The notes: generated by a model from the sequence alone, not told the origin. A stretch of 64,000 nucleotides of DNA from Stellaceae bacterium (GCA_036500965.1 DASYBC010000155.1:1230-65229), one strand, 5' to 3'. Positions 17,374-48,332 are shown, counted from the first letter of the stretch. Program-made: numbers and translations.

Positions 17374-19630
<2,257 letters not shown>

Positions 19631-19647
<17 letters not shown>

Positions 19648-21439: not shown

Positions 21440-21440
21440 C

Positions 21441-23624: not shown

Positions 23625-26395
23625 GCGGAGGCTGCGCCCCCGCGCCCCCGATTCGCGCCACCTATCGCCTGCAATTCCATCGCGGCTTCACCTTCCGCGA
23701 TGCGGCCGCTCTGGTCCCATATCTCGCGGCGCTCGGGGTCAGCCACGTCTACGCCTCGCCGATCACCGAGGCGCGGCCGGGCTCGACCCATGGCTATGAC
23801 ATCATCGATCACAACCGGCTCAACCCGGAAATCGGCAGCGACGAAGACTTCCATCAGCTGACTGCCGTGCTGCGGGCGCAAGGCATGGGGCTGATCGTCG
23901 ATTTTGTCCCGAACCATATGGGGATCGGCGCCGACAACGCCTGGTGGCTCGACGTCCTCGAATGGGGGCAGGAATCGCCGTTCGCCCGTTTTTTTGATAT
24001 CAACTGGCACCCGTTGCGCAGCGATCTCGAGGGTCGGGTGCTGCTGCCGGTCGTCGGCGAGCAATACGGGATGGTCCTCGAAAAGGGCAAGATCGCGCTG
24101 CGGTTTGACGCGACGGAGGGCAGCTTCAGCGCCTGGTATTTCGAGCACCGCTTTCCAATCTCGCCGCGTTCGTACCCGATGATCCTCGATCTCGGCGGGG
24201 AATTGCTGGCCGGGATCGCCGGCGATTTCGCGGTGCTCGCCAATCTGCCGCCGCTCGCCGCGCGCGAGCGCGCCACCGAGCTGAAGCGCGCCTTGGCCGA
24301 TTTGGCCCGCCAACCGGCGGTGGCCGGCGCGATCGAGGCGGCGCTGCAGCGGCTCGCCGTCCGGCCCGGCGACCCGGACAGCTTTAGCCCGCTGCATCGG
24401 CTGCTCGAAGCCCAATCCTACCGCATCGCCGATTGGCGGGTTGCCGCCGAGGAGATCAATTATCGCCGTTTTTTCAACATCAACGATTTGGCCGGGCTGC
24501 GCATGGAGCTGCCCGAGCTGTTCGAGGAGACGCATCGGCTGATGTTCGGTCTGGTCGAGCGCGGCGCGGTGCATGGGCTGCGCATCGACCACATCGACGG
24601 GCTGTTCGACCCGCAGGGCTACTGCGAGCGACTGCAGCAAGGTTGCGGCGCGCCGCTTTATGTGCTCGTCGAAAAGATCCTGGCGCGCTACGAGGTCCTG
24701 CCGGACTGGCCGGTCGCCGGCACCACCGGCTACGACTTTGTCAACCAGGTGCTGGCGGTGTTTATCGATCCCGACGGCGAAGCGGCGATGACGCGACTTT
24801 ATCGCCGTCTGGCGCCCCGCGACGAAACCTTCGACGATGTTCTCTACGCCTGCAAAAAGCGCATCATGCAGGTCAATCTCGCGAGCGAGATGAACGTGGT
24901 CGCGCGCGAGCTTCATCAGCTGGCGATGCGCGACATGCGAACCCGCGACTTCACCCTGAATGGGGTGCTGGCGGCTCTCGAAGAAGTGGTGGCGGCGTTT
25001 CCAGTCTATCGCACGTACGTATCGCCGCGCGGGACCGGCGTCGATGACCGACGCTACATCGACTGGGCGATCGGACAGGCGCGCAAGCGCTGGCGCGGCG
25101 CCGATACCACGATCTTCGATTTTCTGCGAGCCATTCTGACCGGCGAGGCGGCCGAGCCGGAGCGGGACCCGAGCCCCGGCGGCGCGCTTTATGCGGCGAT
25201 GCATTTTCAGCAGGTGACCGGGCCGGTCATGGCCAAGGCGGCCGAGGACACCGCCTTTTACCGCTATGTACGGCTCCTGGCGCTGAACGAGGTCGGCGGC
25301 GACCCACGGCGCTTCGGGATGTCGGTTTCGGCCTTTCATCATCTGGCGCAGCAGCGCGCCCGGCAGTGGCCGCAGGCGATGGTGACGACCGCGACGCACG
25401 ATACCAAGCGCGGCGAGGATGCGCGCGCCCGCTTGGCGCTCCTATCGGAGATGCCGCGCGAATGGGGCCGCCGGGTGTTTCAGTGGCTGCGGCTCAACCG
25501 CTCGCGCCGATCCGAAATCGACGGCGAGAATGTGCCGAGCCGCAATATCGAGTACCTGTTCTATCAGGCGCTGCTCGGCGCCTGGCCGCCCGCTCTGGCA
25601 CCCACCGACGTCGCCGGCATCGACGGCCTGGCCGAGCGGATCGAGGCCTTTATGATCAAGGCGGTGCGCGAGAGAAAGCTCGAATCGAGCTGGAGCAACC
25701 CCGACCCAGAATACGAGGCGGCGCTGCAGCGCTTTGTCCGCGGCGTGCTCGATGCGTCTCGGCCCAATCCGTTCCTTGCCGAGTTTCACGGCTTTGTCAC
25801 CGGGCTCGCGCGCGAGGGGGCGATCACCTCGCTTTCCCAGCTGGTCTTAAAGCTGACCGTGCCCGGGGTGCCCGACATCTATCAGGGCGGCGAATTGTGG
25901 GATTTCAGCCTGGTCGACCCGGACAATCGCCGGCCGGTCGATTGGGGCGCGCGCCGCGCGCTCTTTGAAACCGTCGCGGCGATGCGGTCCGGCGAGCTTG
26001 CTCGCGATTGGCAGGACGGCCGCGAAAAACTGTTCGCGACCCGCTGTCTTTTGACCTTGCGCCGCGCCCGACCCGCCCTGTTCGCCGAAGGCGACTACCA
26101 GCCGCTCGAGACCATCGGCGACGGCGGCGGCCAGCTCTGCGCTTTCTGCCGCAGCTATGCCGCCAACGGGGTGGCGCTGGTCGTTGCCGTGCCGCGCCTG
26201 GTGCACCGGCTCTATCGCGGCGGCGAGACGGCCGAGTGGGGCGACACGCGGCTCGCTCTGCCGCCGGGCGGCGGCTGGCGCGACATCTTTACCGGGCGTC
26301 GCCTCGACCGGCGCGACCGGGTTCCGGCCGCTGAGCTCTTCGCCGATTTCCCGGTCTCGGTCCTGATCGGCGATGCCGCCGTCGCGGAAAGCTGA
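23621..26395 (+). CDS. treY: malto-oligosyltrehalose synthase
   Basis: ATYRLQFHRGFTF, GVSHVYASPI, VPNHMG, GLRIDHIDGL, TTATHDTKRGED. ATGA overlap with malQ. Confidence 0.9.
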   Translation: MSGGCAPAPPIRATYRLQFHRGFTFRDAAALVPYLAALGVSHVYASPITEARPGSTHGYDIIDHNRLNPEIGSDEDFHQLTAVLRAQGMGLIVDFVPNHMGIGADNAWWLDVLEWGQESPFARFFDINWHPLRSDLEGRVLLPVVGEQYGMVLEKGKIALRFDATEGSFSAWYFEHRFPISPRSYPMILDLGGELLAGIAGDFAVLANLPPLAARERATELKRALADLARQPAVAGAIEAALQRLAVRPGDPDSFSPLHRLLEAQSYRIADWRVAAEEINYRRFFNINDLAGLRMELPELFEETHRLMFGLVERGAVHGLRIDHIDGLFDPQGYCERLQQGCGAPLYVLVEKILARYEVLPDWPVAGTTGYDFVNQVLAVFIDPDGEAAMTRLYRRLAPRDETFDDVLYACKKRIMQVNLASEMNVVARELHQLAMRDMRTRDFTLNGVLAALEEVVAAFPVYRTYVSPRGTGVDDRRYIDWAIGQARKRWRGADTTIFDFLRAILTGEAAEPERDPSPGGALYAAMHFQQVTGPVMAKAAEDTAFYRYVRLLALNEVGGDPRRFGMSVSAFHHLAQQRARQWPQAMVTTATHDTKRGEDARARLALLSEMPREWGRRVFQWLRLNRSRRSEIDGENVPSRNIEYLFYQALLGAWPPALAPTDVAGIDGLAERIEAFMIKAVRERKLESSWSNPDPEYEAALQRFVRGVLDASRPNPFLAEFHGFVTGLAREGAITSLSQLVLKLTVPGVPDIYQGGELWDFSLVDPDNRRPVDWGARRALFETVAAMRSGELARDWQDGREKLFATRCLLTLRRARPALFAEGDYQPLETIGDGGGQLCAFCRSYAANGVALVVAVPRLVHRLYRGGETAEWGDTRLALPPGGGWRDIFTGRRLDRRDRVPAAELFADFPVSVLIGDAAVAES

Positions 26396-26551
26396 TCGAG
26401 GCTGTCTACAGCCGGGGTGAGACCGGCTATACTCGACGCGGCACGGGGTTTGGCCCAACACGAGCTTGGGTCCAAACGAGCTTGGGTATGAGCCGCGGGA
26501 TCCCGGGTTACCCTGGCGGCTGGCCCAGGGGGTCGGCGGGGGAGGCGGGGC

Positions 26552-26584
26552 CCATGCCTCCCCGCCCGCTCCCCTTCCAAGCCG
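26552..26584 (+). repeat. attL core (33-bp direct repeat)
   Basis: CCATGCCTCCCCGCCCGCTCCCCTTCCAAGCCG, identical to 48300-48332. Flanks diverge on both sides. Confidence 0.8.
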
Positions 26585-26743
26585 CTGATTTGTGCCCTCT
26601 TCTCCCCGATACGCCATTGAAAAGGCGGGTGAATTGGGCGCCTGCACAGTCCCTTAGCGTGCCGTGTCATCCCTCGAAATCCCACCTTGACCCAGAATGA
26701 AAGTGGGGTTAAGAGTGGGATTGGCTCGGCGGAGGAGGGAAGC

Positions 26744-27928
26744 ATGGCGGCGCATATCGGCGGCAGGTTGACGGTCGCGAAGGTCAAGGCGGCGGGGCCA
26801 GGGAAGCACCCGGACGGCGCGAACCTCTGGCTACAGGTCGGGCCGAATAGGTCGCGTTCTTGGTATCTGCGGTATACCCTGCGCGGCCACAGGCACGAAA
26901 TGGGGCTCGGTCCCTATCCGCTGGTCGGGCTCGCGGAGGCTCGCGATCGGGCGACGATGCAGCGCAGGCTACTCCTCGACGGCACCGACCCGATAGAAAC
27001 GCGGAAGGCCAGGCAGCCGACCCGCGATCCCGTCACCTTCGCCGTCGCGGCCAAGCAGTATATCGCCGGCCACGAGAAAGCCTGGAAATCAGCCGACCAC
27101 GCGCGCCAGTGGCGCAACTCTCTTGACCGCTATGTGCTGCCGGCGCTGGGCGAGCGGCCGATCGGCGCGGTTGACACTCACGACGTGCTGTCGATCGTCG
27201 AGCCGCTATGGCAGGACAAGACTGAGACCGCGAGCCGCCTACTGAACCGCATGGGGCTGATACTCGATTGGGCGGCGGCCAGGAAGTTGCGGACTGGCGA
27301 AAACCCGGCGCGGTGGAAAGGGCACCTCGACGCGGTGCTGCCGCGGCGTTCCAAGGTGCAGCGCGAGGAACACCACTCGGCGTTGCCTTATGCCCGGTTG
27401 CCCGACTTCATGGACACACTTCGGAAGCAGACCGAGATTGGAGCGCGTGCGGCCGAGCTGATGATCCTCACCTGCACCCGCACCAGCGAGGTTCGGTTCG
27501 CGGCGTGGGCAGAGATCGACCTGGAAGCCCGGCTCTGGACCATTCCGGCCGAGCGCATGAAAGCTGAGCGCGATTACAGAGTGCCACTCTCCGGCCCGGC
27601 ACTGGCGATCCTGGAAGGTCTGCCGAAGGATGGCGAACACGTGTTCCCCAGCATGGGGCAGCATGCGATTTTGAAGGCGGTTAAGCGAGCCGATCCGACG
27701 GTAACCGCACATGGGTTCCGCTCGGCATTCTCGGACTGGTGCGCCGAGCAGACCGCGTTTCCGGCCGAGGTGCGGGAGATGGCGCTGGCTCACGCCGTAG
27801 GAAGCGCCGTGACGCAAGCTTATAGACGCGGGGATGTCCTGGAGAAGCGGCGGCAGCTCGCGGAGGCATGGACTGGCTTCTGCGCCGGCGGCCCGTCCGC
27901 GGAGAATGTGGTGCCCCTCCGCGCCTGA
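26744..27928 (+). CDS. int: tyrosine-type site-specific integrase (P4-like, DUF4102 arm-binding N-terminus)
   Basis: GRLTVAKVKAAGPGKHPDGANLWLQV...SWYLRY N-domain. Catalytic-domain residues TCTRTSE, HGFRSAFSDW, LAH...YRRGD. GGAGGAGG RBS upstream of the ATG at 26744. Confidence 0.9.
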   Translation: MAAHIGGRLTVAKVKAAGPGKHPDGANLWLQVGPNRSRSWYLRYTLRGHRHEMGLGPYPLVGLAEARDRATMQRRLLLDGTDPIETRKARQPTRDPVTFAVAAKQYIAGHEKAWKSADHARQWRNSLDRYVLPALGERPIGAVDTHDVLSIVEPLWQDKTETASRLLNRMGLILDWAAARKLRTGENPARWKGHLDAVLPRRSKVQREEHHSALPYARLPDFMDTLRKQTEIGARAAELMILTCTRTSEVRFAAWAEIDLEARLWTIPAERMKAERDYRVPLSGPALAILEGLPKDGEHVFPSMGQHAILKAVKRADPTVTAHGFRSAFSDWCAEQTAFPAEVREMALAHAVGSAVTQAYRRGDVLEKRRQLAEAWTGFCAGGPSAENVVPLRA

Positions 27929-27941: not shown

Positions 27942-28256
27942 CTAACCCGCGACTGAGTAGCCGGTGCCGTTCCGCTGAAGCCAAATCCATTGAAAGGGGA
28001 CGCTGAGCGGCGGATAGGTCCCGCCGTCGATCGCCGCGGCACAGGCGACAGTAATCGGGTAGCTCCCCGCATTCCCGGCGATGTCTTTGAGGATGAGGAA
28101 GCCGAGATCATCCGCCAGGGTCAAGGTGATCGGGCCGCCCGAGGTGTTGTTGATGAAGATCACCCCGGCCTCGGAGATCGTGCTGGTGCCGTTGACGGTG
28201 CTCGTGGGCAGCGCGAATGCAGCGTCGCCCAGGTTAGCGATTACGGTCATTGCCAT
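27942..28256 (-). CDS. hypothetical protein (beta-rich, 104 aa)
   Basis: ORF 27942..28271. The ATG at 28256 is preceded by GAGGAGG. No family recognised. Confidence 0.45.
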   Translation of the reverse strand: MAMTVIANLGDAAFALPTSTVNGTSTISEAGVIFINNTSGGPITLTLADDLGFLILKDIAGNAGSYPITVACAAAIDGGTYPPLSVPFQWIWLQRNGTGYSVAG

Positions 28257-28381
28257 CAGGTGCCTCCTCACCGAGCATCGCCGGCCTCCACGCTCCTTGC
28301 GATCTCACTAGTGTCTATCTTAGACTAAGTACCAGTGATGTCTCAAATGCATCAGCACTTTGCCGGTGCCCGGAGTTGCTC

Positions 28382-28726
28382 GTGGAAGACCGTTTGTTAA
28401 CCGTGAAAGAGTTTTGTAAGCAGGCACGTATCTGCCGCGCGACCTTCTACAATATTTGCGCGAGGGGTGAAGGCCCCGAGACGAGCTGCGTCGGCCGGAA
28501 GCGCATGGTTAGCGCCGAGGCGGCGGAGACTTGGCACAAGTGGCGCACCTGCGCCCTGAGCCGGGATGAGGTGAAGAAGCTTGCCGCGGGGATGGTCTGG
28601 GAGGTGCTCCCGGAGCTGATGGACGCGCATGGGGCCGTGCGGGGGCTGGCAGTGTTCGCGCACCAGCTCGGTGTGATCGCAGAGGCGCTGGGTGCCGGGC
28701 AGTCGGGGGAGGCAGCCCGTGGCTGA
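28382..28726 (+). CDS. AlpA/excisionase-type helix-turn-helix protein
   Basis: LLTVKEFCKQARICRATFYNICARGEGPETSCVGRKRMVSAEAAETW matches the AlpA/MerR-like excisionase HTH pattern. No ATG is available, so a GTG at 28382 is proposed. Confidence 0.6.
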   Translation: MEDRLLTVKEFCKQARICRATFYNICARGEGPETSCVGRKRMVSAEAAETWHKWRTCALSRDEVKKLAAGMVWEVLPELMDAHGAVRGLAVFAHQLGVIAEALGAGQSGEAARG

Positions 28727-30737
28727 CGCACAAATCCCCCGGATGGTCCGGGCACAGATGGGCCGCGAGGCACAAGCCCGGCCGATCCGCCTCAACCAGC
28801 AGGTGCTCCAGGCGGGGAAGCGGGGGGCGGAGGCTCCCAGGATGCGCGGGGAGCGCGTCGGCGGCGGCACTGGCCTCGGCCGCGCCTTCGGTGGCGCAGC
28901 CAGCGCGGGTGGCGCAGCCAGCGCGGGTGGCGAAGACGCCTTCCTCAGCGGCAAATTTGAGCAGAACCCCACCATTCGGCTCCTGGGCTTCCCGATCGCG
29001 GGAGGTGGCCTTACCCCTTGGGGCAAGCGCCAGCAAGCCGACCGCTCCGCGATCGACCGCTTCGTGGGCAGCTATCAGGGTCTCAAGCAGAACGGTGCCA
29101 CGGATCAGGAAGCCTTCAAGCAAGCGTGGAAGGCCAACCCGGACGGGATGTTGGCGATGTTCAATCACCCCACGGCTCTACGCAGCTTCGAGGGGCTCAC
29201 GCAGGTCCTCAACCAGGGCACGGCTGCCCCGGCGCCCGCGGAGAAATGGGCTGTCGGCGGCAACGGGGAGCAGTACCAAGTTGACCCGCAGTCCGGGAAG
29301 ATCATCGGCTCTGCGCCGATCCCTGGCTGGCAGGCTGCGCCGCAGGCTCCCGGGAAGCTGATCCGCACGGATAAGGGCTACGGCCTTCTTCAGCCCGACG
29401 GCACGGTCCGGCAGGCGACATGGTCGAACGGAAGGCCGATTGCGGGTGACGGCAGCGGCAGCGGCAGCGGCGGCGGCGTGATTGCCGGCGGGGCCGGCCC
29501 AAGCGGCGCGGTCATGGCGCCTGCAAAGCCCGGCGCTCCAGGCGCAGCCGCTGGCCCTCTCACCCGCTACAGCGGAGACCCCATCCCGCTCGGCGGCACG
29601 GGCAAGCACCCGCTGACCCAGGGCGAGGTGAGCTACCTCAGCAACGCTTCGAATTACATCAGCGATCTCAAGGTGGCCCGGGACTACGCGGATGCCTCCG
29701 GCCCGATCTCCGGAGCAGTGCAGTACGTCGGCGGCAAGTACCTCGGGGTCAATGATCAGGGCGCGACGTACGCCGCGGCGCTCAACCGGCTCGATCAGGG
29801 CTTGTACGCGCAGTACGGGATCAAGGGCTCGGCTGGGGCGAAGCAGCTCATGGCGACCCTGCCGACGCACAGCCAGGCGCCGAGCTACGTGCGGGCGTCG
29901 ATCACGCAGATGATCGACAATGCGCAGGGTGAGTTGCAGAACCGCGCCGATCTAGCAGAGCAGCGCACGCAGGCCGCGCTCCCAGGGACGCTCCGCAACC
30001 AACTTGAAACGAAAGCCGATGTCTTCTCGCTCAGCGACCAGAACGATGCCAGCCCGACATGGGTTGCGCGGAATTACCCGGACAAGCTCACCGGACAGCA
30101 AATCCTGAACCTTTCGAACTCGTCCCCAGGCACCCTGGAGCCGAGCGAGTTGTCTGGGCTGAATGACCGGCTCGACCAGGAGCAGGCTAAGAGAACTGCC
30201 GATGCCCAGGCGCAAGCCACGGCCCAGGCACAGCAAGGGCAGGCGCAGGGGCAGCGGGCGGCCGATCGGCAAGCACAGGCTCAGGTCAGTGCAGGGGCAG
30301 GCTCCGCAGGTGGCCAAGATCAGGACTTCGCGGGGGGCACAGGCGTCGACAGCTCCGCGGCGAAGCAGCCACAGCCCAGCCCAGACAGCAGCCCGGCGGC
30401 TCCGCAGCAGCAGCAGGCCCCGACGCAGGCAGGGACGGCACTCGACGCGAGCGTCCCGGGCGTCTCGGTCGCGCCGAACAGCACCTTCGCCCAGCCGCCG
30501 GCCCAGCCGCAGCCGCAGGGCGACCAGAGCATGCCGCCGGTGGCCCCAGGACCTCAAAGCGACGCTTCACAAGCCGCTCCAGCTCAGGCTGCGGCTCAGG
30601 CTGGACAAATTCCAGTAGCGCAGGCCGCCCAGGCGGCTCAGGCCCTAGCACCAGCCCAAGCTCAGCCGCCAGGCCAACCACCTGGGACCAACCCATACGC
30701 CGCGGCGGTAATCGACGCCATGGGCGGAGGCACCTGA
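28692..30737 (+). CDS. large orphan protein (up to 681 aa) with Gly/Ser and Gln/Ala/Pro low-complexity tracts
   Basis: Long ORF ending 1 nt before the RBS/ATG of the next giant ORF. Start is uncertain: GTG 28692, or ATG 28743 or 28758. No family recognised. Confidence 0.6.
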   Translation: MPGSRGRQPVADAQIPRMVRAQMGREAQARPIRLNQQVLQAGKRGAEAPRMRGERVGGGTGLGRAFGGAASAGGAASAGGEDAFLSGKFEQNPTIRLLGFPIAGGGLTPWGKRQQADRSAIDRFVGSYQGLKQNGATDQEAFKQAWKANPDGMLAMFNHPTALRSFEGLTQVLNQGTAAPAPAEKWAVGGNGEQYQVDPQSGKIIGSAPIPGWQAAPQAPGKLIRTDKGYGLLQPDGTVRQATWSNGRPIAGDGSGSGSGGGVIAGGAGPSGAVMAPAKPGAPGAAAGPLTRYSGDPIPLGGTGKHPLTQGEVSYLSNASNYISDLKVARDYADASGPISGAVQYVGGKYLGVNDQGATYAAALNRLDQGLYAQYGIKGSAGAKQLMATLPTHSQAPSYVRASITQMIDNAQGELQNRADLAEQRTQAALPGTLRNQLETKADVFSLSDQNDASPTWVARNYPDKLTGQQILNLSNSSPGTLEPSELSGLNDRLDQEQAKRTADAQAQATAQAQQGQAQGQRAADRQAQAQVSAGAGSAGGQDQDFAGGTGVDSSAAKQPQPSPDSSPAAPQQQQAPTQAGTALDASVPGVSVAPNSTFAQPPAQPQPQGDQSMPPVAPGPQSDASQAAPAQAAAQAGQIPVAQAAQAAQALAPAQAQPPGQPPGTNPYAAAVIDAMGGGT

Positions 30738-30738
30738 T

Positions 30739-33700
30739 ATGGCTCTTCCCGGTTTTGATCCTGGCTCGGGCTCGGCTGACCCCCTGGCGGACCCGACAGC
30801 AGCAGCACCAGCGCCGCAGCCCGTTGCCGCAGCCGCCGCACCGCAGCCCGTGTATCCGGCAGGTGGTGGTGACGGTGGGCCCACCGGGGCCAGCGGCCCT
30901 TCGCTCACCCCTGCGGCGCAAACCTACGTGGATCGGATGGCCTCGTCCGGGTACACGGCGGAGCAAATCAGCGCCGGGCTCGGTGTACACAGCTACGAGG
31001 GCGGTGGGACCTTCGACCCCACCGCGCAAAACCCCAACTCCGGCGCCGTTGGGATTTCGCAGGACCTCGGGCCGCGGCAGACAGGGCTTTCCGCGTTCCT
31101 CAACTCGACAGGGCAGACACCCAGCGTTGCGTCGGAGACGGACTACGATCTCAGTGAGCTTCGTGGACCCGAGGCTGCGGCGGACAAGGCCGTGCGCTCG
31201 GCGAGCACCGTGGAGGACGCGGCTCGCGCCTGGTCGCACAGTTTCGAACGGCCGGGGGCTGCCGGCGAGGCCAAGGAAGTTCCCTACGCGATCGACCTCG
31301 GCAACCGCGCTCTGCCCCTGGTGCGGGCTCGGCTGGCAGCCGCAGCCGGCGCAGCCGGCGGCTCAACCCCTAGCGGCTCCGAGGCGAACCCAGCATTCAT
31401 CGGTGCGATGACGCAGCAGGCCGACCCGGACCGCGCAGCGATCGACGAGGCGCTGCGGATGCGCGCTCGTGCCCTAGGCCAGCCCGATCCCACGCTTCCA
31501 GGGCCACCACGGGTTGAAAATGTGCAGCTCCCCTCGGGCGAAACGTCGCCACAGCCCGACCCGATCGGCGAGGCGCTGAAGCTGCGCGCTGCGTCCCGTG
31601 CAGCGGCAGGCGCTGCGGCACTGAAGGCGGCGGCCGGCGCGGAGGGCTCCGCGGCTGGCGGCAGCGGCTTCCCCTCCAATCCCCTCCCCGACGCGGGCAT
31701 CCTGCATGAGCTGGCACATGACGGGAAACTCCTCCCTGGTGCTGTGGCCCGCGGACTTACTGATCTCCTCGGCACCCCCGCGGATGCTGTAAGCTCCCTC
31801 GCCAACTACTACGCGGCCAATCCGGCGCAAGCGGCTATAGCAGCGAGCGGCGGCATGGCGCTGAGCGCCCCCGATCTGCCCGCGCAGCCAGGAGCAACGT
31901 CGCCGATCTCCGCCCTCGTGGCCCCTGCGACCTCCAGGTCGATCACCGCAGCAGGGAACCGCGCTGGCGCGGCCCTGGGGATGGGCTCGGGAGTGCTCAA
32001 CAGCCCCGCCGAGAATGGTGATTACGATGTTGCGCACAATGCCGTCTTCGGGCTCGGCCGGTTCGTCGGCGCGGGCGTGGACCCGTTTAATCCGCTCGGG
32101 CTGGTCGGCGTGGGCCGCGGCGCTTACGGCGTGTTGCGCGGAGTTGAAGGGGCCGGAGCGGCTCTCGGCAAGGCCGCACTGAGCGCCGCAGGCACGCACG
32201 TCCTCGCGCCGGTTGCGATTGCTGGCGGGGCGGATGCGGGCGAATACGCCACCGGCGTCCTCGGCGGCCAGGCGGCGGAGCAACGCTTCGGCAACCTGGT
32301 CGGCATCCCTCTCGGGATTGCCTTTCGCGGGGCTGGTGAGGGGCTTCTGCTCAAGGGGCTCGCGGGCGGCAAGGCTGGGTTTGCAGGGGTAGGCAAAGCC
32401 CTGGGCAACGGCCGGCCGGTCTTCGACAATCCCAGCGAAGCACTTAGCAACCTCGGTGACGGAGCCTTCGCAGCAAGCCTGCCCCACCCCGAAGCCGGAT
32501 TGCCGGAAGGCTACAACGTCCCCGGCGCTACCGCGAGCATGGATCAGGCCGGGCAGGCGTTCTTTCAGCAAACTGTGCACGGCGACGCCCTGGCTAGCGG
32601 GAATTATCGGAACCTCCTCGACCGCAACACACAAGCCCTTCGCGGTGCTGCCCCCGGCGGTGATCCGGGCGACGCTCTGAACTACGTCCGCAGTGTGGAG
32701 GATGCTCGGCAGCAGGCCGTTGGGCTTCGCATTCAGCAGGCTCAAGCTGATGCGGACCTGGCGCAAATTGCCGCAAGCCGAGGCACCAGCGGGCAGGCGC
32801 TGATGGTCGGCGGCCCTGGCAAGGCGCAGCTCTTCGACTACGGTGGGGAGGTGGTGAACCAGCTGGCCGCGGCGCGGGATGACGCCAAGGGCATGGCGGA
32901 TGCGGCGTGGGATGCGGCCCGGCAGGACGGCTTCACCTCGGCGACCACGGACACGCGCCCCCTGTACAACGCGATTGAAGGGCTCGCTCAGAGCAGCATC
33001 AAGAACCTCCAGGCTCCAGGCATCTTCCCCTATCGCGAGCTTGCGCCGCTGTATCAGGACGGCGACCTGCGCGGGATGTTCGATGCGATGGGCGCGCGGA
33101 AGGCGGGCACCACCGCTGCCGGCGCCGGGAACGGGCCGAATGCTGTGCTCCAAGGCCCGGCGAGCCTGGACACCTTGCACTCCCTGGAAAGCAGCCTGGG
33201 GGCTGCCGCGCGGCAGGAACAGGACGCGATCCGCTCGGGCAGCGGCTCGGGCTCGCCGCTCCGCCTGCGCAATCTCAGCGCCGTGCGGAATGTCGTCACG
33301 CAAACGATTGAGCAGGGCGCACAGTTGTCCGGGAACTACGCCGGCATGCGCAATGCGATGAATGCCACGGCAGCGTATTACAACACGTTCGGGCATGGGG
33401 TGATCGGGGACTTGCTTGGCTCGGCTGACCACGGGGATGCACCACGAAAGCTCGCAAGCTGGCTCGGGAACTCGACCAAGGCGCAAGCCGCCTCGCAGGA
33501 CTTCACCACTGCGATGGCGCACGTCGGCGGCGCTCCGGGGCTGAACAACGCCCTCGCCGACTACCTGCGGCAGGACTACCTCCTCGTCCGCGGGGAAGGC
33601 GGCCCGCTGGCCGGGCAAAAATGGGCAGATAACCACGCGGGCTTCCTTCAGGGTGCCAGCGGCCCCGGCGCTACCGACCCCTTCTCGCGCTTGCGCAGCG

Positions 33701-34740
33701 ACGTGGAGCGGTTGAACCAAAGCGACGCGGCGATCCCACAGCTCCGGGACGCAGCGGCGCGGGATCAGGACCGTGTTGACGTGCGAATGGCGCAGAACTT
33801 TCTCGGCGCTAATGAGGGGCAGGAGCTGGAAGCCGCGCTGCGGGGGCAGGCTCCCGCGGTGGGGATGCAGCGCCTTGTGGATATGACTAAGCAGGACGGC
33901 ACCGGGCAGGCGTTCCGCGGCCTTCAGCGGATGCTCTTCGACCGCACCCTTGCCGCGGGGCAGAAGTATGGCCCCGATGGCGGCACCTACTACTCCGGCC
34001 GGGCAGCACAAGCCTTCATGCAGGCGAACCGCGGTGCCTTCGGCGTGATGCGCCGGGCAGACCCCGTGGTCGGCGGAAACCTGGACCAGCTCGTCAACGG
34101 GCTTGCCGCGGAGGATGCGATCCGCGCGCGGCCGGATGTCGCCGGGCTGCCGAAGAGCCTCGCCACAGCCGCACCGATTGTCGGCCAGAGCGGGGTGAGC
34201 AAGGCTATCGGCGTGGCACTGCCTTATGCCGGGCGGCTGATTGGCGCGGACCTCGGGCGGAAGGCGGATACCGGGACGATCCAAATCCCCGGCATCGGCG
34301 CCGAGATCGGCGGGAAGGCCGCCGAAGGCATCTATCAGATGGTCACGGGGCGAGAAGCGCCGCACATCGCCGCGATGAATAACCTTCGGAATGCAATGTT
34401 CGACCCGGCGCTGACGCAGCAGTACCTCAGCGAGCAGAGGGCCGCGATGGCGCAGGCTGGCGGAGAAGCTGGCATGGGGTTCGCGGAAAGCCCGCTGCGT
34501 GGCAGGGCGGCCGGGCATCGCGCCGGGGTTCAAGCGACAGCGGTGCTCGGGCGGGGCATGACGCCCCTAGGGGCGCCCCCGCTCACACTAAGCCCGCAGC
34601 ATCCATGGGTCCGAGCGGCTGGTGTTGAGGCCGCGCACAGCGTTCTGAATGCGGATGAGACCACGCCGCCCGTGCAGCATCGCTACCCTGCGGTGCAGGG
34701 GCGAGGGCGAGGGCCGGGGCGCACGCCTTGGGATAGGTAA
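30739..34740 (+). CDS. giant orphan protein (1333 aa) with an N-terminal phage-tail-lysozyme-like domain
   Basis: GGAGG RBS upstream of the ATG at 30739. Residues ~55-190 (SAGLGVHSYEGGGTFDPTAQNPNSGAVGISQ...AARAWSHSFERPG) fit my recollection of the Phage_lysozyme2 / tail-tip lysozyme pattern (E-S-G-F-x-P ... SGA-x-GI-x-Q ... FERP). The remainder is Gly/Ala-rich with no recognised family. Confidence 0.65.
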   Translation: MALPGFDPGSGSADPLADPTAAAPAPQPVAAAAAPQPVYPAGGGDGGPTGASGPSLTPAAQTYVDRMASSGYTAEQISAGLGVHSYEGGGTFDPTAQNPNSGAVGISQDLGPRQTGLSAFLNSTGQTPSVASETDYDLSELRGPEAAADKAVRSASTVEDAARAWSHSFERPGAAGEAKEVPYAIDLGNRALPLVRARLAAAAGAAGGSTPSGSEANPAFIGAMTQQADPDRAAIDEALRMRARALGQPDPTLPGPPRVENVQLPSGETSPQPDPIGEALKLRAASRAAAGAAALKAAAGAEGSAAGGSGFPSNPLPDAGILHELAHDGKLLPGAVARGLTDLLGTPADAVSSLANYYAANPAQAAIAASGGMALSAPDLPAQPGATSPISALVAPATSRSITAAGNRAGAALGMGSGVLNSPAENGDYDVAHNAVFGLGRFVGAGVDPFNPLGLVGVGRGAYGVLRGVEGAGAALGKAALSAAGTHVLAPVAIAGGADAGEYATGVLGGQAAEQRFGNLVGIPLGIAFRGAGEGLLLKGLAGGKAGFAGVGKALGNGRPVFDNPSEALSNLGDGAFAASLPHPEAGLPEGYNVPGATASMDQAGQAFFQQTVHGDALASGNYRNLLDRNTQALRGAAPGGDPGDALNYVRSVEDARQQAVGLRIQQAQADADLAQIAASRGTSGQALMVGGPGKAQLFDYGGEVVNQLAAARDDAKGMADAAWDAARQDGFTSATTDTRPLYNAIEGLAQSSIKNLQAPGIFPYRELAPLYQDGDLRGMFDAMGARKAGTTAAGAGNGPNAVLQGPASLDTLHSLESSLGAAARQEQDAIRSGSGSGSPLRLRNLSAVRNVVTQTIEQGAQLSGNYAGMRNAMNATAAYYNTFGHGVIGDLLGSADHGDAPRKLASWLGNSTKAQAASQDFTTAMAHVGGAPGLNNALADYLRQDYLLVRGEGGPLAGQKWADNHAGFLQGASGPGATDPFSRLRSDVERLNQSDAAIPQLRDAAARDQDRVDVRMAQNFLGANEGQELEAALRGQAPAVGMQRLVDMTKQDGTGQAFRGLQRMLFDRTLAAGQKYGPDGGTYYSGRAAQAFMQANRGAFGVMRRADPVVGGNLDQLVNGLAAEDAIRARPDVAGLPKSLATAAPIVGQSGVSKAIGVALPYAGRLIGADLGRKADTGTIQIPGIGAEIGGKAAEGIYQMVTGREAPHIAAMNNLRNAMFDPALTQQYLSEQRAAMAQAGGEAGMGFAESPLRGRAAGHRAGVQATAVLGRGMTPLGAPPLTLSPQHPWVRAAGVEAAHSVLNADETTPPVQHRYPAVQGRGRGPGRTPWDR

Positions 34741-36508: not shown

Positions 36509-37195
36509 TCAGCCTCGCCTATCGGCAGGTTCAAGCGGAGGAAACACCGGGCCGCGCCGGCGATGGATCAGCCCCAGCATGCCGAGGCCGCCTAGCAGGA
36601 CCCAGAGGCTCCGCGGCTCGGGCACCGCGGCGCTCGCCACCAGCATCCCCGCGTATTGCGCCGGGGAAGATGTCTCGTAGGCATCGGAGCCATAGCTGAT
36701 CGTGCCAACCGCGCCGGTGCTGATCTGGGCTGGGTTTTCCGAGCCCGGCGGAGTGCCATAGACCTCATCCGTGTCCCTCGCGTTGATGAAGAACAGCGAG
36801 AGGCTGGCGGTGCCGTCGGCCGGGTCCGCAGTCAGCCCTATTGTCCATATCGGGGTCTGGCTATCGAAGCCCTCCGTCGTGAAGTCGGCCAGGGTGATCG
36901 ACAGATTTCCGACATGCAGGTTGAATGACGCCAACTGTGGCGGAAATGGATACGGTGTCGGCGGCGTTGTCGGTGAGGTCGGGGGCGGCGCGAAGAGGCT
37001 GTCGGTGCTGAGCGACAAGTCGCCGTTCACCGTGAACGACAGGGACAGCGGCGGTGCCGGGCCGTCGAGCCCGTTGTTGGGCGGCACGTTCGAAATCGTT
37101 TCCCAGGTGTAAGTGACTGCGGCGGCCTGTGCACCGCTGGCGAGCCCAGCGAGGCATAGAGCAGCGCAGAGCGCGTAAGCGGCGCGACGCATCAT
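36509..37195 (-). CDS. PEP-CTERM sorting-domain secreted protein
   Basis: Signal peptide MMRRAAYALCAALCLAGLASGAQA. C-terminus VPEPRSLWVLLGGLGMLGLIHRRR is the canonical PEP motif plus TM helix plus Arg cluster. Confidence 0.75.
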   Translation of the reverse strand: MMRRAAYALCAALCLAGLASGAQAAAVTYTWETISNVPPNNGLDGPAPPLSLSFTVNGDLSLSTDSLFAPPPTSPTTPPTPYPFPPQLASFNLHVGNLSITLADFTTEGFDSQTPIWTIGLTADPADGTASLSLFFINARDTDEVYGTPPGSENPAQISTGAVGTISYGSDAYETSSPAQYAGMLVASAAVPEPRSLWVLLGGLGMLGLIHRRRGPVFPPLEPADRRG

Positions 37196-37400
37196 GACGA
37201 CCCTCCCGTTCGGGCGCGCGGCTTCCCGGCTGCGCCTTTCACTCTGACGCGAGAGTATGCTCACCCGGATCGCGGCCGGCGTGACAACCCGTGAGGTGCG
37301 TCAGGATGCCGCTGGGCAGCTCGACGGCCGGCAGGTCATGGCGACGACAACCTCTGCTAAGCTGCCCTCGGGAGGACGCAACTTTCCCGAAGGCAAGCAC

Positions 37401-38535: not shown

Positions 38536-38838
38536 GTGTCCTGGTTTTGTGTCCTGGAAAAAATGGCAGTTTTTACCCCCTAATGCACTGAAAAACATTG
38601 TGTCCTCGGTGTCCTGGTTTTTCGCGAAGAGCTTCTGCATACTGTGTCTCCTATAGAGCTGGAGTTTTCAACAAAAGTTAGGACACGGAGGTAAGAATGG
38701 CAGTTTCTCTCTCGTAAGTGGCTGAAAGAGAACAAAACCCGTGTCCTAACCGTGTCCTGGTGGGTCCTGACTTTTTCAGGAAAAGTGAACAAAATCAATA
38801 CAAGCCGTGTCCTGACTTTTTCAGCAAAACCAGGACAC
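38536..38838. repeat. iteron array (about 10 copies of GTGTCCT(G/A), both orientations): putative replication origin
   Basis: Direct copies at 38536, 38549, 38600, 38609, 38741, 38752 and 38807. Variants at 38644 and 38762. Inverted copies at 38680-38686 and 38831-38838. Embedded longer repeats TCCTGACTTTTTCAG (x2) and AATGGCAGTTT (x2). The region is AT-rich and non-coding, directly 3' of the helicase gene. Confidence 0.7.
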
Positions 38839-38902
38839 GGCAACCGGGGGTGGAGAAGAGGTTGCTCCCACCCCATGCGGTAGTGTGCAGCCCGGACGCA
38901 GC

Positions 38903-40438
38903 TCAGCCGGTAGACGCAGCAACGCGGCTCGCAAGTGGGACGACCACACCCATTGGCTGCTTGCTGAGTGCGTCTGCATCATAGCGGCGAATGCCGCGGT
39001 AGACACGCTCGCGTTCCCCGCCACGGCCACCGGGCCGCGCAACCGTCACGCTGGGCAAAGCCTTGTTGAGCGCCATGTCGAACTTCGTCTTCGACATGGG
39101 TTTGTGGTCGTTGGCAATGCACCAACTCTTGTAAGCCGCATGGGTGTGATCGCGACTATCGCTTAGCTCTTTCCCCACTTGCAGCCGGTCATCAATGAAC
39201 TTGAGGATTGGGCTGGTCGCAAACCGCATCATCTCCATCAGCTCGGCCGAGTTGGTTGGTTGCGTGAAGCACCCGTTTTCCCTCAAGGCACGAAGACCCT
39301 CCAGCGCCCAATTCAGTATGCCGGGGAGTTCTTTCGCCAACCGATCACGCAACGTTAGGTCCTCCCGGCCGTAGAAGCTTTCGAGGAACCGGATCAGAAT
39401 GAAACGATCGGCGATGACGCCACTGTCATCCGAGAACTCCGGTGCATAGTTCGAGTTGATGAGGAAACGCACATTGAGCGTCCCGGTCCAGTCGTCTTTA
39501 TTCTTCCGGGGTACGGTGATATCGTCTTCACCGCTCAGTGTGAGGAACCGGGAAACTAGCTCCGAAGTATCTCCCTTCAGGCGCGCGTCTCCGACAATAG
39601 CGAGACGTTTGTCGATCAGGCAAGCCATGCCGAATTGCTGCGCTAGGCCGGTCATTGTCGGGTGGACAACATTCTCAGTCCCGATCACTAGTTGCAACGT
39701 AGAGGCTATGGTGCCTTTGCCACTTCGCTTCTCGCCCGAGTGGGCGAAGATTTTCTGCTGCCGAGTATCGTTAGTGACGAAGTAGCCGAACTCCTGTTGA
39801 AGTGCAGCGCGGCTCTCGGGGTCGGGAAGAACATCGCGAATGAACTTCTCCCAGGTGGGCGCCTTGGCCTTCGGGTCGTAGTCATACCCAACTGAGTTCA
39901 TGGAGAGGAACGTGGGCGTGTGGGGCAGAAGTTGCCAGGTCTTCAGGTTGAGAAGCCCGTTTCTGCACGGCAGAATGTCGGCGGGATCGTTGGCTAGGTC
40001 ATCTTCGGTCGCCGCCGGCATCCACGCAGGGGCCTTGATGGTCCCGGAGACGCGCACGATGCTGCGCAGCGCATCAATGAACTTGTTCACTGTACGATCG
40101 TCCGGGTAGAACCGACGCCGGACAGTCTTCATCTCCCCGTTTTCGTCGGGCTCTTGCGAGAGCGTGTATGCGCTGCCGAGGAACTCATAGACGATGGCTC
40201 GAATGTCGCCATCTTCCAGGGTGCTGTAATGTGTGCCAATCCAGCGGTAGAACAGGCCGCGGTAGTGGATGAGGGGCGTGGTGCCGAATTGAGTTTCGGC
40301 GAATGTTCCTGCCATCCCACGCCAATCCCGTGAGTTGATCAACCAACCTTCCAGGCTTGCACCCGACGTTGTTTCGGCGGCCTCAGACCCCTTGTTCTCA
40401 GGCTGCGGCGCACCATATACTGTATTGTTCGTGGTCAC
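38903..40438 (-). CDS. P4/D5-family SF3 replicative helicase (phage/plasmid primase C-terminal NTPase type)
   Basis: 511 aa. Walker A GEKRSGKGT, then AIVGDARL...SGEDDITVPRKNKDDW...FLINSNYAP...DRFILIRF, colinear with the P4-alpha / poxvirus D5 C-terminal region. No separate primase domain recognised. Confidence 0.8.
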   Translation of the reverse strand: MTTNNTVYGAPQPENKGSEAAETTSGASLEGWLINSRDWRGMAGTFAETQFGTTPLIHYRGLFYRWIGTHYSTLEDGDIRAIVYEFLGSAYTLSQEPDENGEMKTVRRRFYPDDRTVNKFIDALRSIVRVSGTIKAPAWMPAATEDDLANDPADILPCRNGLLNLKTWQLLPHTPTFLSMNSVGYDYDPKAKAPTWEKFIRDVLPDPESRAALQQEFGYFVTNDTRQQKIFAHSGEKRSGKGTIASTLQLVIGTENVVHPTMTGLAQQFGMACLIDKRLAIVGDARLKGDTSELVSRFLTLSGEDDITVPRKNKDDWTGTLNVRFLINSNYAPEFSDDSGVIADRFILIRFLESFYGREDLTLRDRLAKELPGILNWALEGLRALRENGCFTQPTNSAELMEMMRFATSPILKFIDDRLQVGKELSDSRDHTHAAYKSWCIANDHKPMSKTKFDMALNKALPSVTVARPGGRGGERERVYRGIRRYDADALSKQPMGVVVPLASRVAASTG

Positions 40439-45401: not shown

Positions 45402-46244
45402 TCAGACCGCGATCAGCTTGCCACGCCACCAAATCCGCCCGAAGCCAGGCTCAGGGTGCTCGGTGACGACTTGCACCAGCTCAGGTGGCAAAAGCTCGCC
45501 GCTCGCCCACGTGAGCACCGCAAAGCCGCTGCGCCAATCGGTCGGACCGGCTTCGAGGTAATTCGTGAACAAGGACGAGTTGACATCGGCGACGCAGCCA
45601 CAATCCACGCCCCAGACCGTGCCTCGGAGCGAGGTTACGGGGATGATCTTTTGGCTGTGGGTATGGCCGGTCACGTAAGTTGCGCCTGCCCGGACGGCAT
45701 TTCGATACGCGGCGTGAGTGCCCCCGGTCAGACGGTGGGCGATGTAGGCTGGACTGTTGCTGACCGAATTAACGCGGACTTGCCAGCTGAAAGCCCAAGC
45801 TGGGAAGAAGTCTTCAAGGCAGGTGCCGTGAAGTCCTTCAAGCTGTGGCGCCTGGTTGCTGAGAAAGCTGGAAAGTCGCAGGCAGTGATTTCCGAGGTTC
45901 CACACGCGCCGCGCCTTGGGCGCCGCGATCTGGATTTCACGCAACCGAGTTTGTGCCTCGGCGATCTCGTCAACGACTTTCGGGCGTTCTTCCCACAGGA
46001 TGCGGCTGTGCTTGCTGATGCTCGGGAAGTCGCACACGTCGCCGTTCGCGACGATGAGCTGCGGCTTGAGCTTCCGCGCAAGCATGACGGCCGCGCGCCA
46101 TGCGGTCGGCGCTGGGCTGCGATGGTCGAAGTGACAGTCGGAGAAGGCCAGAGCCACGCCATCCCGCAGGGTGACATCGATCCGGCTTTCCATCCGGGCG
46201 GTCGTCTCTGCCGCGCTTTCCGCGGTCTTGTGTGCTTGTGACAA
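45402..46244 (-). CDS. calcineurin-like metallophosphoesterase
   Basis: SDCHFD, NGDVCD, GNHC and GHTH motifs in canonical order. Confidence 0.75.
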   Translation of the reverse strand: MSQAHKTAESAAETTARMESRIDVTLRDGVALAFSDCHFDHRSPAPTAWRAAVMLARKLKPQLIVANGDVCDFPSISKHSRILWEERPKVVDEIAEAQTRLREIQIAAPKARRVWNLGNHCLRLSSFLSNQAPQLEGLHGTCLEDFFPAWAFSWQVRVNSVSNSPAYIAHRLTGGTHAAYRNAVRAGATYVTGHTHSQKIIPVTSLRGTVWGVDCGCVADVNSSLFTNYLEAGPTDWRSGFAVLTWASGELLPPELVQVVTEHPEPGFGRIWWRGKLIAV

Positions 46245-46951: not shown

Positions 46952-47554
46952 TCAGTCTTTCCACAACCCGTCGAACCGTGTGGCGCTCATCTGGGCATAG
47001 CGCGCGGTGTTGTTGACGTTTGCATGGCCGAGGTAGGCCGCGAGCGACAGGCTATCCATCCCTTGGTTGACCAGCCGAAAGCCACAGCCGTGGCGCAATA
47101 GGTGTGGATGCACGTCGGCGATCCCGGCACGCTCTGCGGCCTTCGTGAGCATCTTAAAGAAGCCGTTGCGCGTCATCGGCGCACCTCGGCTGGTCATGAA
47201 TACGAAGCGGCTGCCGACTGGCTGCGCGCGACGCAGCTTGCGAAGCAACCGCACCTCGCGACCGCGCAGTGGATGCACGCCATCCCGACCGCCCTTGGCG
47301 CGGATCACCGTCACGTGGCCAGCATCTAGGTCAAGCTGGCGCCACTGCATGCTGATCAGCTCGCTGACGCGGAGCCCGTGCGTATAGGCCATCAAGATCA
47401 TAGCGCGGTCGCGCTCGTTGTCGGCGGTCTTGACGATCTGATCCACCTCGGCCTCGGTCAGGTAGCCACGCTTTGGTGCGAGGTGCGCGTCAGTATCCAA
47501 ATCGGTGCTCGGTTCGGCTTCTGTTCTTACGGCGCGAACGGCGGATTTGTTCAT
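46952..47554 (-). CDS. small tyrosine recombinase (catalytic domain only, FimB/FimE/Xer-like, 200 aa)
   Basis: YTHGLRVSEL, RAKGG, HPHLLRHGCGFRL, LGHANVNNTARY (R..H-x-x-R..Y catalytic set). AGGAG RBS upstream of the ATG at 47554. Confidence 0.8.
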   Translation of the reverse strand: MNKSAVRAVRTEAEPSTDLDTDAHLAPKRGYLTEAEVDQIVKTADNERDRAMILMAYTHGLRVSELISMQWRQLDLDAGHVTVIRAKGGRDGVHPLRGREVRLLRKLRRAQPVGSRFVFMTSRGAPMTRNGFFKMLTKAAERAGIADVHPHLLRHGCGFRLVNQGMDSLSLAAYLGHANVNNTARYAQMSATRFDGLWKD

Positions 47555-47568
47555 ACGTGGGCTCCTTT

Positions 47569-47598
47569 CAGTATCCAATATGGTCGGTTTGGATACTG
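47569..47598. promoter_or_regulatory. lox/dif-like site: perfect 10-bp inverted repeats around a 10-bp spacer
   Basis: CAGTATCCAA-TATGGTCGGT-TTGGATACTG, 15 bp upstream of the small recombinase start. A third arm copy CAGTATCCAA lies at 47491-47500 inside the gene. Confidence 0.45.
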
Positions 47599-48299
47599 CC
47601 GCCAAGGGGCGAATTTCGTCGCGCACCGTCAGCCGCGCATCGACATCGTCGCGCAGGCGCATCACCGTCTTGGGACGCGGCGGCACGGATCAGTGCGTCA
47701 CGGCTCAAGCGCTGTCGCGCTGCGCGCTTGGAACAATTTAGGAACTGACCCACTGGGGTGAGCTTTCCCCCAAGGCAAGCATGCTTGGAGCGGCAGTTCC
47801 GGGGACCCGGTGGGAGCGGGCAGCCAAGATATAAAATTAAAAAGAGAGCCCCTATGGGACTTCGCAACCCAAGCGTGCTGGCGCTGGGGTCGCGCTCGGG
47901 AAATATTACAAAAGCAGGCTGTGGGAGCTTGGTTGTGCCTGCGGGCAGGGCACGCGCGGAGCGGGCAATGGGGCTGAACGGCTGGGTAGGCGCTCGCGCT
48001 GCGGCCCTGGCGAAGACGAGCAGCAGTCGCAACCAGCCACCGTCCCCAACCCAGCCGCCGATAGTCTACTTCCTTAGTCCCGCACTCCTACCGAGCAACC
48101 TCTTTATGAGTGCCCAGTGTGCGAGATCGGCCCGGCCGCCGGCAATCCCCGAGCACCGATGCGCCGAGACGCAGCCGCGCGACCCGGCCGTTCGGGATTT
48201 TCGGGTGCTGCGCGGGTGCCCTGCTGCAAAGGTGGTTGAAAGTGGGGTTGAGCCGTCGAAATTTCGTGAGAGCGGCGGTTTTGCTGGGTTGCGTGAGGA

Positions 48300-48332
48300 C
48301 CATGCCTCCCCGCCCGCTCCCCTTCCAAGCCG
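48300..48332 (+). repeat. attR core (33-bp direct repeat)
   Basis: Identical to 26552-26584. Confidence 0.8.

Follow-up and report, generated by a model that had tools for sequence, protein, structure and literature searches.

The window analyzed here, a stretch of 64,000 nucleotides (GCA_036500965.1 DASYBC010000155.1:1230-65229), belongs to a metagenome-assembled genome (MAG) named 'Stellaceae bacterium'; the host is an alphaproteobacterium and the sequence is 67% GC. Between two direct repeats the window holds a 21.7 kb island, and two adjacent genes of this island, which we call G1 and G2, together take up 6.05 kb or 28% of it, in agreement with a first-pass annotation that had given the pair over a quarter of the element. 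The pair is homologous to two neighboring proteins encoded in the late-gene modules of uncultured phages, and the island copies appear to stem from one phage-to-island transfer. Position, size pattern and domain architecture lead us to equate the two proteins with the internal core or ejection proteins of short-tailed phages, which are packed in the head atop the portal and leave via the tail at infection, and we consider it probable that G1 and G2 are phage-derived virion proteins of this kind. The island itself could well be a satellite-like mobile element that brings ejection proteins of its own and relies for head, tail and packaging on a helper from this group of phages, a reading that we hold tentatively. 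The main features, with lengths in amino acids (aa) and open reading frames abbreviated as ORFs, are as follows.

28382..28726, plus strand: AlpA/excisionase-like helix-turn-helix (HTH) gene, first of the operon; weak matches to HTH_17 (25.5 bits, just under the 27-bit cut-off) and to PHROG excisionase/regulator families (E ~0.003)
28719..30737, plus strand: G1, 672 aa (mechanical ORF 28692..30737, 681 aa, GTG); by position the analogue of T7 gp15, and proposed as an ejection (internal virion) protein of middle size
30739..34740, plus strand: G2, 1333 aa, ATG start; by position the analogue of T7 gp16, and proposed as the large ejection (internal virion) protein, headed by a muralytic domain
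30916..31263, plus strand: Phage_lysozyme2 (PF18013) domain, residues 60-175 of G2; Pfam E 3.2e-14, 53.7 bits against a curated cut-off of 28.2

The G1-G2 pair and its phage relatives

The first-pass annotation had described two co-oriented ORFs of 681 and 1333 aa, 1 nt apart and with GGAGG before the second, and the coordinates 28692..30737 and 30739..34740 agree with this description. The stop codon of G1 (TGA, 30735-30737) is followed by one nucleotide and then by the ATG of G2 at 30739, GGAGG occupies positions 30726-30730, and both ORFs show the codon-position GC pattern of real genes. The real start of G1 is most likely the GTG at 28719, giving a protein of 672 aa with the N-terminus MADAQIPRMVR, because homologues begin MAD..IP..VR at this point, because a GGGGGAGG ribosome-binding site precedes it and there is an 8-nt overlap with the stop of the upstream HTH gene, and because 672 aa is also the length called independently on another assembly of this sequence. 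The long form of G2 is backed by a conserved MALPGFD, by the ribosome-binding site and by a spacing of 0-1 nt in most relatives; a JGI gene call had put its start at Met67. In the variable, Gly-rich N-terminal region of G1 there is a perfect 18-nt tandem duplication at 28890-28925 (GGTGGCGCAGCCAGCGCG twice), which is translated as GAASAG GAASAG. A 1019-aa antisense ORF within G2 (31474-34533, minus strand) is not a gene; we regard it as a by-product of high GC content because its conservation in relatives merely mirrors that of G2.

The PF18013 match extends over profile positions 3-122 of 140 and establishes the lysozyme-like head that had been proposed for G2, including the unusual reading of Glu-Gly-Gly in place of Glu-Ser-Gly. 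The motif is YEGGG; its Glu (E87), which we take to be the catalytic residue of the domain, is invariant in close G2 homologues, and one homologue reads the canonical YESG. The NCBI label for G2, 'phage tail tip lysozyme', reflects only the ~115 residues that have any library match. As the first-pass annotation had also stated, no family can be recognized in the rest of the pair: searches of Pfam, PHROGs and NCBIfam were empty both for G1 and for the G2 body outside of the lysozyme head, and G1 has no match among PDB sequences either. The claimed Gly/Ala-rich composition is evident (A 17%, G 14%, Q 11% and P 8% in G1; A 19% and G 14% in G2), G2 is predicted to be mainly α-helical, and neither protein contains a strongly hydrophobic segment, a transmembrane segment or, again as claimed, a signal peptide.

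When 1.84 billion cluster representatives were searched exhaustively with HMMER, the query being the G2 body without its lysozyme head, there were 40 matches, all metagenomic, of which 18 lie below 1e-30 and which include full-length proteins of 1200-1300 aa. Five full-length homologues were examined for their genomic context (P0013, P0014, P0017, P0028 and P0049), and 5/5 are found in a phage-like late module. The order of the module is an adaptor (weak SU10_adaptor match), a protein of ~615-734 aa, proteins that match PHROG 'virion structural' families, a protein of ~266-438 aa, a G1 homologue of ~505-693 aa and finally a lysozyme-headed G2 homologue of ~1183-1250 aa. The contigs concerned, with products listed in gene order, are given below.

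L008, 44.9 kb: 271 (weak SU10_adaptor), 93, 717 (PHROG virion structural), 64, 139 (PHROG virion structural), 587, 212, 106, 327, 692 and 1214 aa (lysozyme); after the pair small genes, a collagen-like gene with tail-fiber PHROG matches and an 805-aa protein; DNA polymerase A and UDG encoded on the opposite strand
L011 and L013/14, 19.5-26.7 kb: layout as in L008
L010 and L015, 46.5 and 34 kb: 266-288, 504-505 and 1202-1239 aa, then a 60-aa gene and a holin; in L010 a Peptidase_S74 protein upstream, with RNR, DUF3987, DNA polymerase A and UDG encoded on the opposite strand
L019, IMG/VR viral contig: 438, 670 and 1183 aa; the one contig found on scanning IMG/VR with the phage-borne members

The related phage contigs include ENA ERZ25039458 contig_110126 (44.9 kb), Logan SRR29078280_11711 (46.5 kb) and SRR29078104_6355 (34 kb), and IMGVR_UViG_3300046516_000521 (34 kb). 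The relationship includes both members of the pair, as an alignment of G1 with the 692-aa protein that precedes the G2 homologue in L008 has an hhalign probability of 99.9% (E 3.4e-31). Island copies are ~25-45% identical to the phage pair, and in a distance tree of the G2 body they form one clade nested among the phage-borne copies; this points to one passage of the pair from a phage into an island, with diversification thereafter. To judge from these contigs the source of the pair appears to be an uncultured phage lineage of ~45 kb that encodes a DNA polymerase A and in which the pair closes the late operon, and the DNA polymerases of these phages have their nearest relatives in Caulobacter podophage Kuura and EBPR podovirus 3. 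Among 26 members of the G2 family the Phage_lysozyme2 domain is found in 11 and an SLT domain takes its place in 1, and such an exchange of heads fits virion-borne wall hydrolases. Searches of deposited phages by tblastn with the phage-borne homologue P0013 and with the 717-aa neighbor from L008 gave no match, and for the adaptor-like and nozzle-like L008 proteins nothing was returned from the PDB. The description of the pair as orphan in the first-pass annotation thus stands for Pfam, PHROGs, NCBIfam, PDB, GTDB representatives and deposited phages (the lysozyme head aside) and falls with the 40 representatives of the exhaustive metagenomic search, while its suggestion that a muralytic head on a huge protein is typical of ejected or internal virion proteins is well matched by distant homologues in phage late operons.

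The case for an ejection role is one of analogy in position and architecture, for which T7 provides a model. G1 and G2 share with the last two members of the T7 series gp14-gp15-gp16 (196, 747 and 1318 aa, followed by fiber and holin) their adjacency, their orientation and near-equal sizes (672 and 1333 aa), and G2, like gp16, carries a muralytic domain at the N-terminus of the larger protein. The related phages resemble T7 as well in that the pair closes the late operon after adaptor-like and nozzle-like genes, next to a fiber or holin gene and with a third, smaller protein before it. This slot in the late operon, between tail-tube genes and fiber or holin genes, with three proteins of rising size and a wall hydrolase at the N-terminus of the largest, is present in L008, L010, L011, L013, L015 and L019; the island itself keeps only the last two proteins together with a 52-aa piece of the first. 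Unlike in T7, G1 and G2 lie on an island without any other virion gene, and the muralytic domain of G2 is Phage_lysozyme2, whereas the T7 record gives an 'endolysin domain' for gp16, presumably of the SLT type. Residues 424-510 of G2 (~32008-32268) bear some likeness to residues 310-394 of gp16 (GAGVDP...VGV, then GG.DA.YA..LGG, in the same order and with similar spacing), and P449 and G497 of G2, which are invariant or near-invariant throughout the family, fall in these gp16-like motifs. The likeness is not significant (Smith-Waterman score of 77 vs 54 ± 6.4 for shuffled sequences, with 1/200 shuffles reaching 77), and because neither the shuffle test nor the family HMM lends support we take it as unproven.

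A second point of comparison is Kuura, a 43.8-kb podovirus whose morphology has been demonstrated (PMC9959647) and which is the closest cultured relative of the phages carrying G1 and G2 homologues by DNA polymerase (29% identity), sharing with them genome layout and size. Its gp19-gp20-gp21 (356, 647 and 1358 aa) form a like size trio at the end of the late genes; unlike in the G2 family, the wall hydrolase (gp20, 'putative transglycosylase') is the middle protein and not the large one.

The island and its lineages

The remaining features of the island are listed from left to right.

26549..26584, no strand: putative attL, left copy of the direct repeat; 35/36 match to 48297-48332
26687..27928, plus strand: P4-type tyrosine integrase; Pfam Arm-DNA-bind_3, Phage_int_M and Phage_integrase; 394 aa in an independent gene call
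27942..28271, minus strand: small gene, divergent from the operon, common to the late module of the related phages (104-109 aa)
36509-37264, minus strand: PEP-CTERM protein with signal peptide and C-terminal sorting signal; Pfam 20.7 bits, at the cut-off, and several NCBIfam PEP-CTERM models below their cut-offs
38903..40438, minus strand: D5/P4-alpha-type primase-helicase, the island replication gene; Pfam D5_N, DUF5906 and Pox_D5; PHROG DNA primase families, E down to 1.8e-69
45402..46244, minus strand: metallophosphoesterase common to the related phages; phrog_221, E 4e-28
46952..47686, minus strand: second short tyrosine recombinase, 244 aa, next to the right end; Pfam Phage_integrase E 2.5e-39; PHROG integrase families
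48297..48332, no strand: putative attR, right copy of the direct repeat; intergenic, ~300 nt from tRNA-Cys (48634-48707, minus strand)

The borders of the island are marked by a 36-nt direct repeat (26549-26584 and 48297-48332) that is 35/36 identical, with a 33-nt identical core and flanks that cannot be aligned. Chromosomal glycogen/maltooligosaccharide genes lie outside the left copy, and tRNA-Cys, rpoZ, spoT, rnc and copCD outside the right copy; an Rfam scan of the island region returned tRNA-Cys alone. An independent contig of the same sequence (L021, Logan SRR11833492_165480) starts at window position 26555, within the left repeat, which is the pattern expected where the sample contains the integrated island alongside empty or excised forms. 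Between the repeats the P4-type integrase comes first, then the minus-strand 104-109-aa gene, the AlpA/excisionase-like HTH gene, G1 and G2, after which there are small uncharacterized genes including that of the PEP-CTERM protein, the D5-type primase-helicase, HNH-type proteins, the metallophosphoesterase and the second short integrase. Pfam and PHROG scans of the tested island ORFs produced no capsid, portal, terminase or tail match, with the proviso that remote homologues could escape such scans. The longest candidate gene besides those of the integrase, G1, G2 and the primase-helicase encodes 317 aa (an HNH protein), so that nothing portal-sized is left. The major capsid protein, portal and large terminase of a complete tailed prophage are thus without a match among the island ORFs, and no hallmark of conjugation or of membrane viruses and no secretion-system gene was found in the island.

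In order to describe the close relatives of the pair we refer to five island lineages, namely that of the window and four independent metagenomic ones. A word-indexed search of 5.8 billion proteins returned four G2 homologues, one of which is the window's own, and four G1 homologues. Close homologues are 45-63% identical to G1 and G2 over their full length (57-63% for G2; 45-58% for the G1 homologues P0005-P0008), the two ORFs are intact in five lineages at 45-66% identity, and in every close-relative contig a small HTH gene is followed by G1 and then by G2. On the 168-kb contig L001 both the integrase and the site are different, and the chromosomal genes to either side (RNase E/G, Maf, hisD, hisG) look alphaproteobacterial; a P4-type integrase is found in L002 and L003, each with its own primase, and L006, L007 and L016 are short contigs. 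The full set of integrase, HTH gene, G1, G2 and primase-helicase occurs in the window, L001 and L002, and the HTH/G1/G2 set in all five lineages; in L001 and L002, as here, primase-helicase genes are present and no virion genes can be recognized. Integrases and replication genes differ among the window, L001 and L002, and the window integrase is 36-55% identical to those of L002 and L007. The window and L002 are syntenic from the integrase through the phosphoesterase, and the window and L001, the two for which flanks are readable, represent different chromosomal sites.

Both genes are under purifying selection. For G2, dN/dS is 0.19-0.31, a range that includes an unsaturated pair (dS 0.11, ratio 0.31), and for G1 it is 0.28-0.42. 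No relative of the island pair was found in GTDB representative genomes, JGI metagenome contigs or IMG/VR, and a protein search with the 26-member alignment returned only the four close homologues already known. The prospect raised in the first-pass annotation of finding syntenic modules in other genomes has accordingly been realized for HTH-G1-G2 in four further metagenomic lineages, and in no GTDB representative genome. Contigs bearing islands and phages (L001/L008, L006/L017/L019, L010/L015) come from neighboring accessions (ERZ25039553 and ERZ25039458; JGI 3300046535, 3300046536 and 3300046516), a hint that islands share studies or environments with phages of the lineage.

The first gene of the operon carries a further trace of the phage module. 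Its C-terminal 52 residues (28547-28702) align to the phage proteins of 266-438 aa (hhalign probability 94%, E 1.2e-7), that is, to the protein preceding the G1 homologue, the shared motif near the C-terminus of the latter being ALPQL..QYGI..GL..QLG.ILQALGL. On the basis of this alignment the gene product combines a DNA-binding HTH with the tail of a third core-type protein, and this fusion is found in all five island lineages. An 'alpA-like gene' had been placed directly before the pair in the first-pass annotation; its position is as described, and its identity as HTH_17 is weak (25.5 vs 27 bits).

Two other genes are shared with the phages. The 109-aa gene, which also occurs in the IMG/VR contig L019 and has a sigma-70-like promoter match at 28346-28317 (minus strand), shows 54% identity to L011 6252..6581 (E 2e-27) and 66% to L007 638..949. 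It is closer to its phage counterpart than G1 and G2 are to theirs, and its predicted product is β-rich. The metallophosphoesterase is 39-45% identical to genes in all of the phage contigs (L008, L010, L011, L013/14 and L015) and 56% identical to that of L002. The earlier statement that none of the partner machinery is present therefore holds for virion genes and has to be amended for the 109-aa late gene, the 52-residue tail and the metallophosphoesterase, which have been retained. When island and phage contigs are compared at the DNA level the similarity is confined to the shared genes, and no shared non-coding (pac-like) segment is found.

Life style of the island

The combination of an integrase/AlpA-like/primase core with att repeats, the absence of virion or conjugation genes and a size of about half that of the phages suggests a satellite, as do the recurrence of one architecture across lineages that differ in integrase, replication genes and site (window and L001) and the purifying selection on the pair. 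Gene content would thus point to a satellite life style, to dependence on a helper and to co-packaging, and this reading is close to the 'satellite's hijacking module' that was one of the suggestions of the first-pass annotation. With phage-inducible chromosomal islands (PICIs) and P4-like satellites the island shares the integrase, the weakly supported AlpA-like HTH, the D5/alpha-type primase-helicase, the att repeats and the lack of capsid and tail genes. Typical PICI or P4 elements are 10-15 kb; unlike these, the island is larger (21.7 kb) and devotes 28% of its length to two putative virion-internal proteins. Of the genes that define PICIs, an integrase and a primase-replicase are present, the candidate for the AlpA/MerR/Stl-type regulator next to the integrase is the HTH fusion protein with its sub-threshold HTH_17 score, and a capsid-morphogenesis gene and small terminase have no match in Pfam or PHROGs among the tested island ORFs; of the P4 set, Psu, Delta, Sid and Ash were not found (Pfam, PHROGs) and only analogues of int, AlpA and alpha are present (criteria of PMC10085698). 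The island would rank as 'Type C' in the scheme of de Sousa et al., for whom the integrase, AlpA-like and primase core is a satellite hallmark that is ambiguous alone (PMC10085698). Capsid-forming PICIs (cfPICIs) offer a precedent for satellites that make part of the virion and obtain the rest from a helper (PMC10085698). These elements encode capsid, portal, connectors and terminase and borrow tails, whereas the island would borrow both head and tail and supply the internal/ejection proteins only. A literature search found no report of a satellite that encodes internal virion or ejection proteins.

In the mechanism that we propose, a helper phage of the lineage would infect the cell or be induced, the island would excise and replicate, and the HTH-G1-G2 operon would be expressed from it. 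G1 and G2 would then enter helper-made procapsids that package island DNA, and the resulting particles would deliver the island together with its own ejection proteins. On infection the large protein, G2, would cut peptidoglycan with its N-terminal lysozyme, and G1 and G2 would build a DNA conduit across the envelope. Going one step further, it is possible, if speculative, that the islands constitute a new family of satellites of Alphaproteobacteria that take head and tail from a short-tailed helper and bring their own G1 and G2, with the HTH fusion coupling a regulator or DNA to the portal-sited core, where it could bias packaging or ejection. The satellites known to date alter or substitute capsids, divert packaging or take tails from a helper, so that if the islands are satellites theirs would be a hijacking strategy so far undescribed. 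If true, this would lead to the testable proposition that ejection proteins have genome-specific roles that a parasite must own, for example in controlling DNA entry or in evading defenses that block it. Regardless of the satellite reading, the comparison suggests a likely role for a family of very large 'hypothetical' proteins (~40 clusters, all metagenomic) and points to an uncultured phage lineage of ~45 kb, in which every readable G2 homologue lies in a late-gene module.

A number of results weigh against these proposals. As regards the ejection role, there is no sequence or fold link to any experimentally characterized ejection protein: hhalign comparisons give probabilities of 0.1-0.2% against T7 gp15/gp16, with the family HMM missing gp16 among the T7 ORFs, and of below 1% against Kuura gp20/gp21, which amounts to no detectable homology. 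PDB sequence and profile searches with the close and the 26-member alignments returned noise only, and AlphaFold models computed from shallow alignments were unusable both for the G2 body (pLDDT 33) and for G1 (pLDDT 45; best Foldseek E 0.46). In deposited phages, moreover, Phage_lysozyme2 is mostly found in tape-measure proteins. As regards the phage lineage, context was read over 10 kb on each side of the homologues, a range in which no head genes (capsid, portal, terminase) were seen, and the label 'podovirus' therefore derives from gene order, a weak adaptor match and the relatives of the polymerases. As regards the satellite, no helper phage, small terminase, pac/cos site or capsid-remodeling gene was identified for the island, the known island lineages number only five, all from metagenomes or MAGs, and the region at ~41-44 kb of the window consists of ambiguous overlapping ORFs with weak coding signals and may be decaying.

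The most serious competing explanation, which we nevertheless regard as unlikely, is that the islands descend from a defective prophage lineage that has lost its head, tail and packaging genes and in which G1 and G2 were kept and domesticated for the benefit of the host. At least four pieces are indeed common to the island and the phage lineage, Pfam and PHROG scans of the island detected no gene for hijacking or packaging, coding signals are weak at ~41-44 kb, and the second short integrase suggests a past rearrangement. These observations have to be set against the conservation of one HTH-G1-G2 junction, fusion included, across five lineages with 34-55% protein sequence divergence, against the different integrases and replication genes of these lineages and the different sites of the window and L001, and against the synteny of the window and L002 from integrase to phosphoesterase, the near-perfect att repeats and the purifying selection on 6 kb of coding sequence. 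We disfavor a defective prophage because independent decay would not yield one architecture repeatedly.

Distinctly less probable is an interference or defense island, in which G1 and G2 would act as decoy core proteins in the procapsids of an infecting phage of the lineage and so render its progeny non-infectious, to the benefit of the host population, with or without transfer of the island. That satellites commonly interfere with their helpers (PMC10085698) counts in its favor, as does the divergence of the island copies from the phage pair (~25-45% identity). No known defense gene was recognized, although no PADLOC search was made, and whole-length purifying selection on 2000 codons, including the putative catalytic Glu, suits a working enzyme or conduit better than a decoy.

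A third explanation takes the pair for remnants of a long-tailed phage in a degraded prophage, with G2 as the tape measure and G1 as a minor tail protein, which is the ordinary outcome that the first-pass annotation had itself allowed for. G2 is long, predicted to be helical and Gly/Ala-rich, and in deposited phages Phage_lysozyme2 sits in tape measures and tail lysins such as RcapMu gp51, BcepB1A gp14, Twort and phiE131 gp18. These proteins match G2 (tblastn) through the lysozyme domain alone, however, with 31-38% identity over ~110-130 residues; in the tape measures the domain is C-terminal or internal and in G2 it is N-terminal, and the gene neighborhoods differ too. In L010 and L015 the G2 homologue is followed by a holin at the end of the late operon, and in L008 by small genes, a collagen-like gene and an 805-aa protein, and no contig has a recognizable distal-tail or baseplate protein after it. 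Upstream there are proteins of 266-438 and 505-693 aa, and not a tube protein and two small frameshifted chaperones. One PHROG tape-measure family is matched by 2/26 members, the matching region not being established, and the other PHROG matches are to lysin/wall-hydrolase families or to families without an assigned function. Since the neighborhoods of the G2 relatives are not tape-measure-like, we consider this explanation improbable. Finally, the proposal of the first-pass annotation that the pair serves a capsid-less or pleomorphic element for transfer or entry, or consists of secreted effectors, which would account for a wall hydrolase heading a huge protein on an island with no recognizable capsid gene, is very improbable indeed for genes that descend from a tailed-phage late module and that come without signal peptide, transmembrane segment, secretion-system gene or hallmark of membrane viruses or conjugation.

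Further observations on the island and its flanks

The 244-aa recombinase lies just inside the right repeat and is without an N-terminal arm-binding domain; it may be the remnant of another element or a second recombinase. The PEP-CTERM protein may be cargo of the island. Beside the primase-helicase gene, in a stretch of low GC content (~58%), a 21-nt direct repeat (GTCCTGACTTTTTCAGGAAAA) occurs twice, at 38764-38784 and 38809-38829, 45 nt apart, where none would be expected by chance. The second copy overlaps a minus-strand ORF of 88-98 aa (38580-38876), and the repeat pair may be an origin or an operator. To the left of the island, which begins just downstream, positions 19523-26395 (plus strand) encode a CBM_48 alpha-amylase-family protein, a 4-alpha-glucanotransferase (MalQ) and a second alpha-amylase-family protein.

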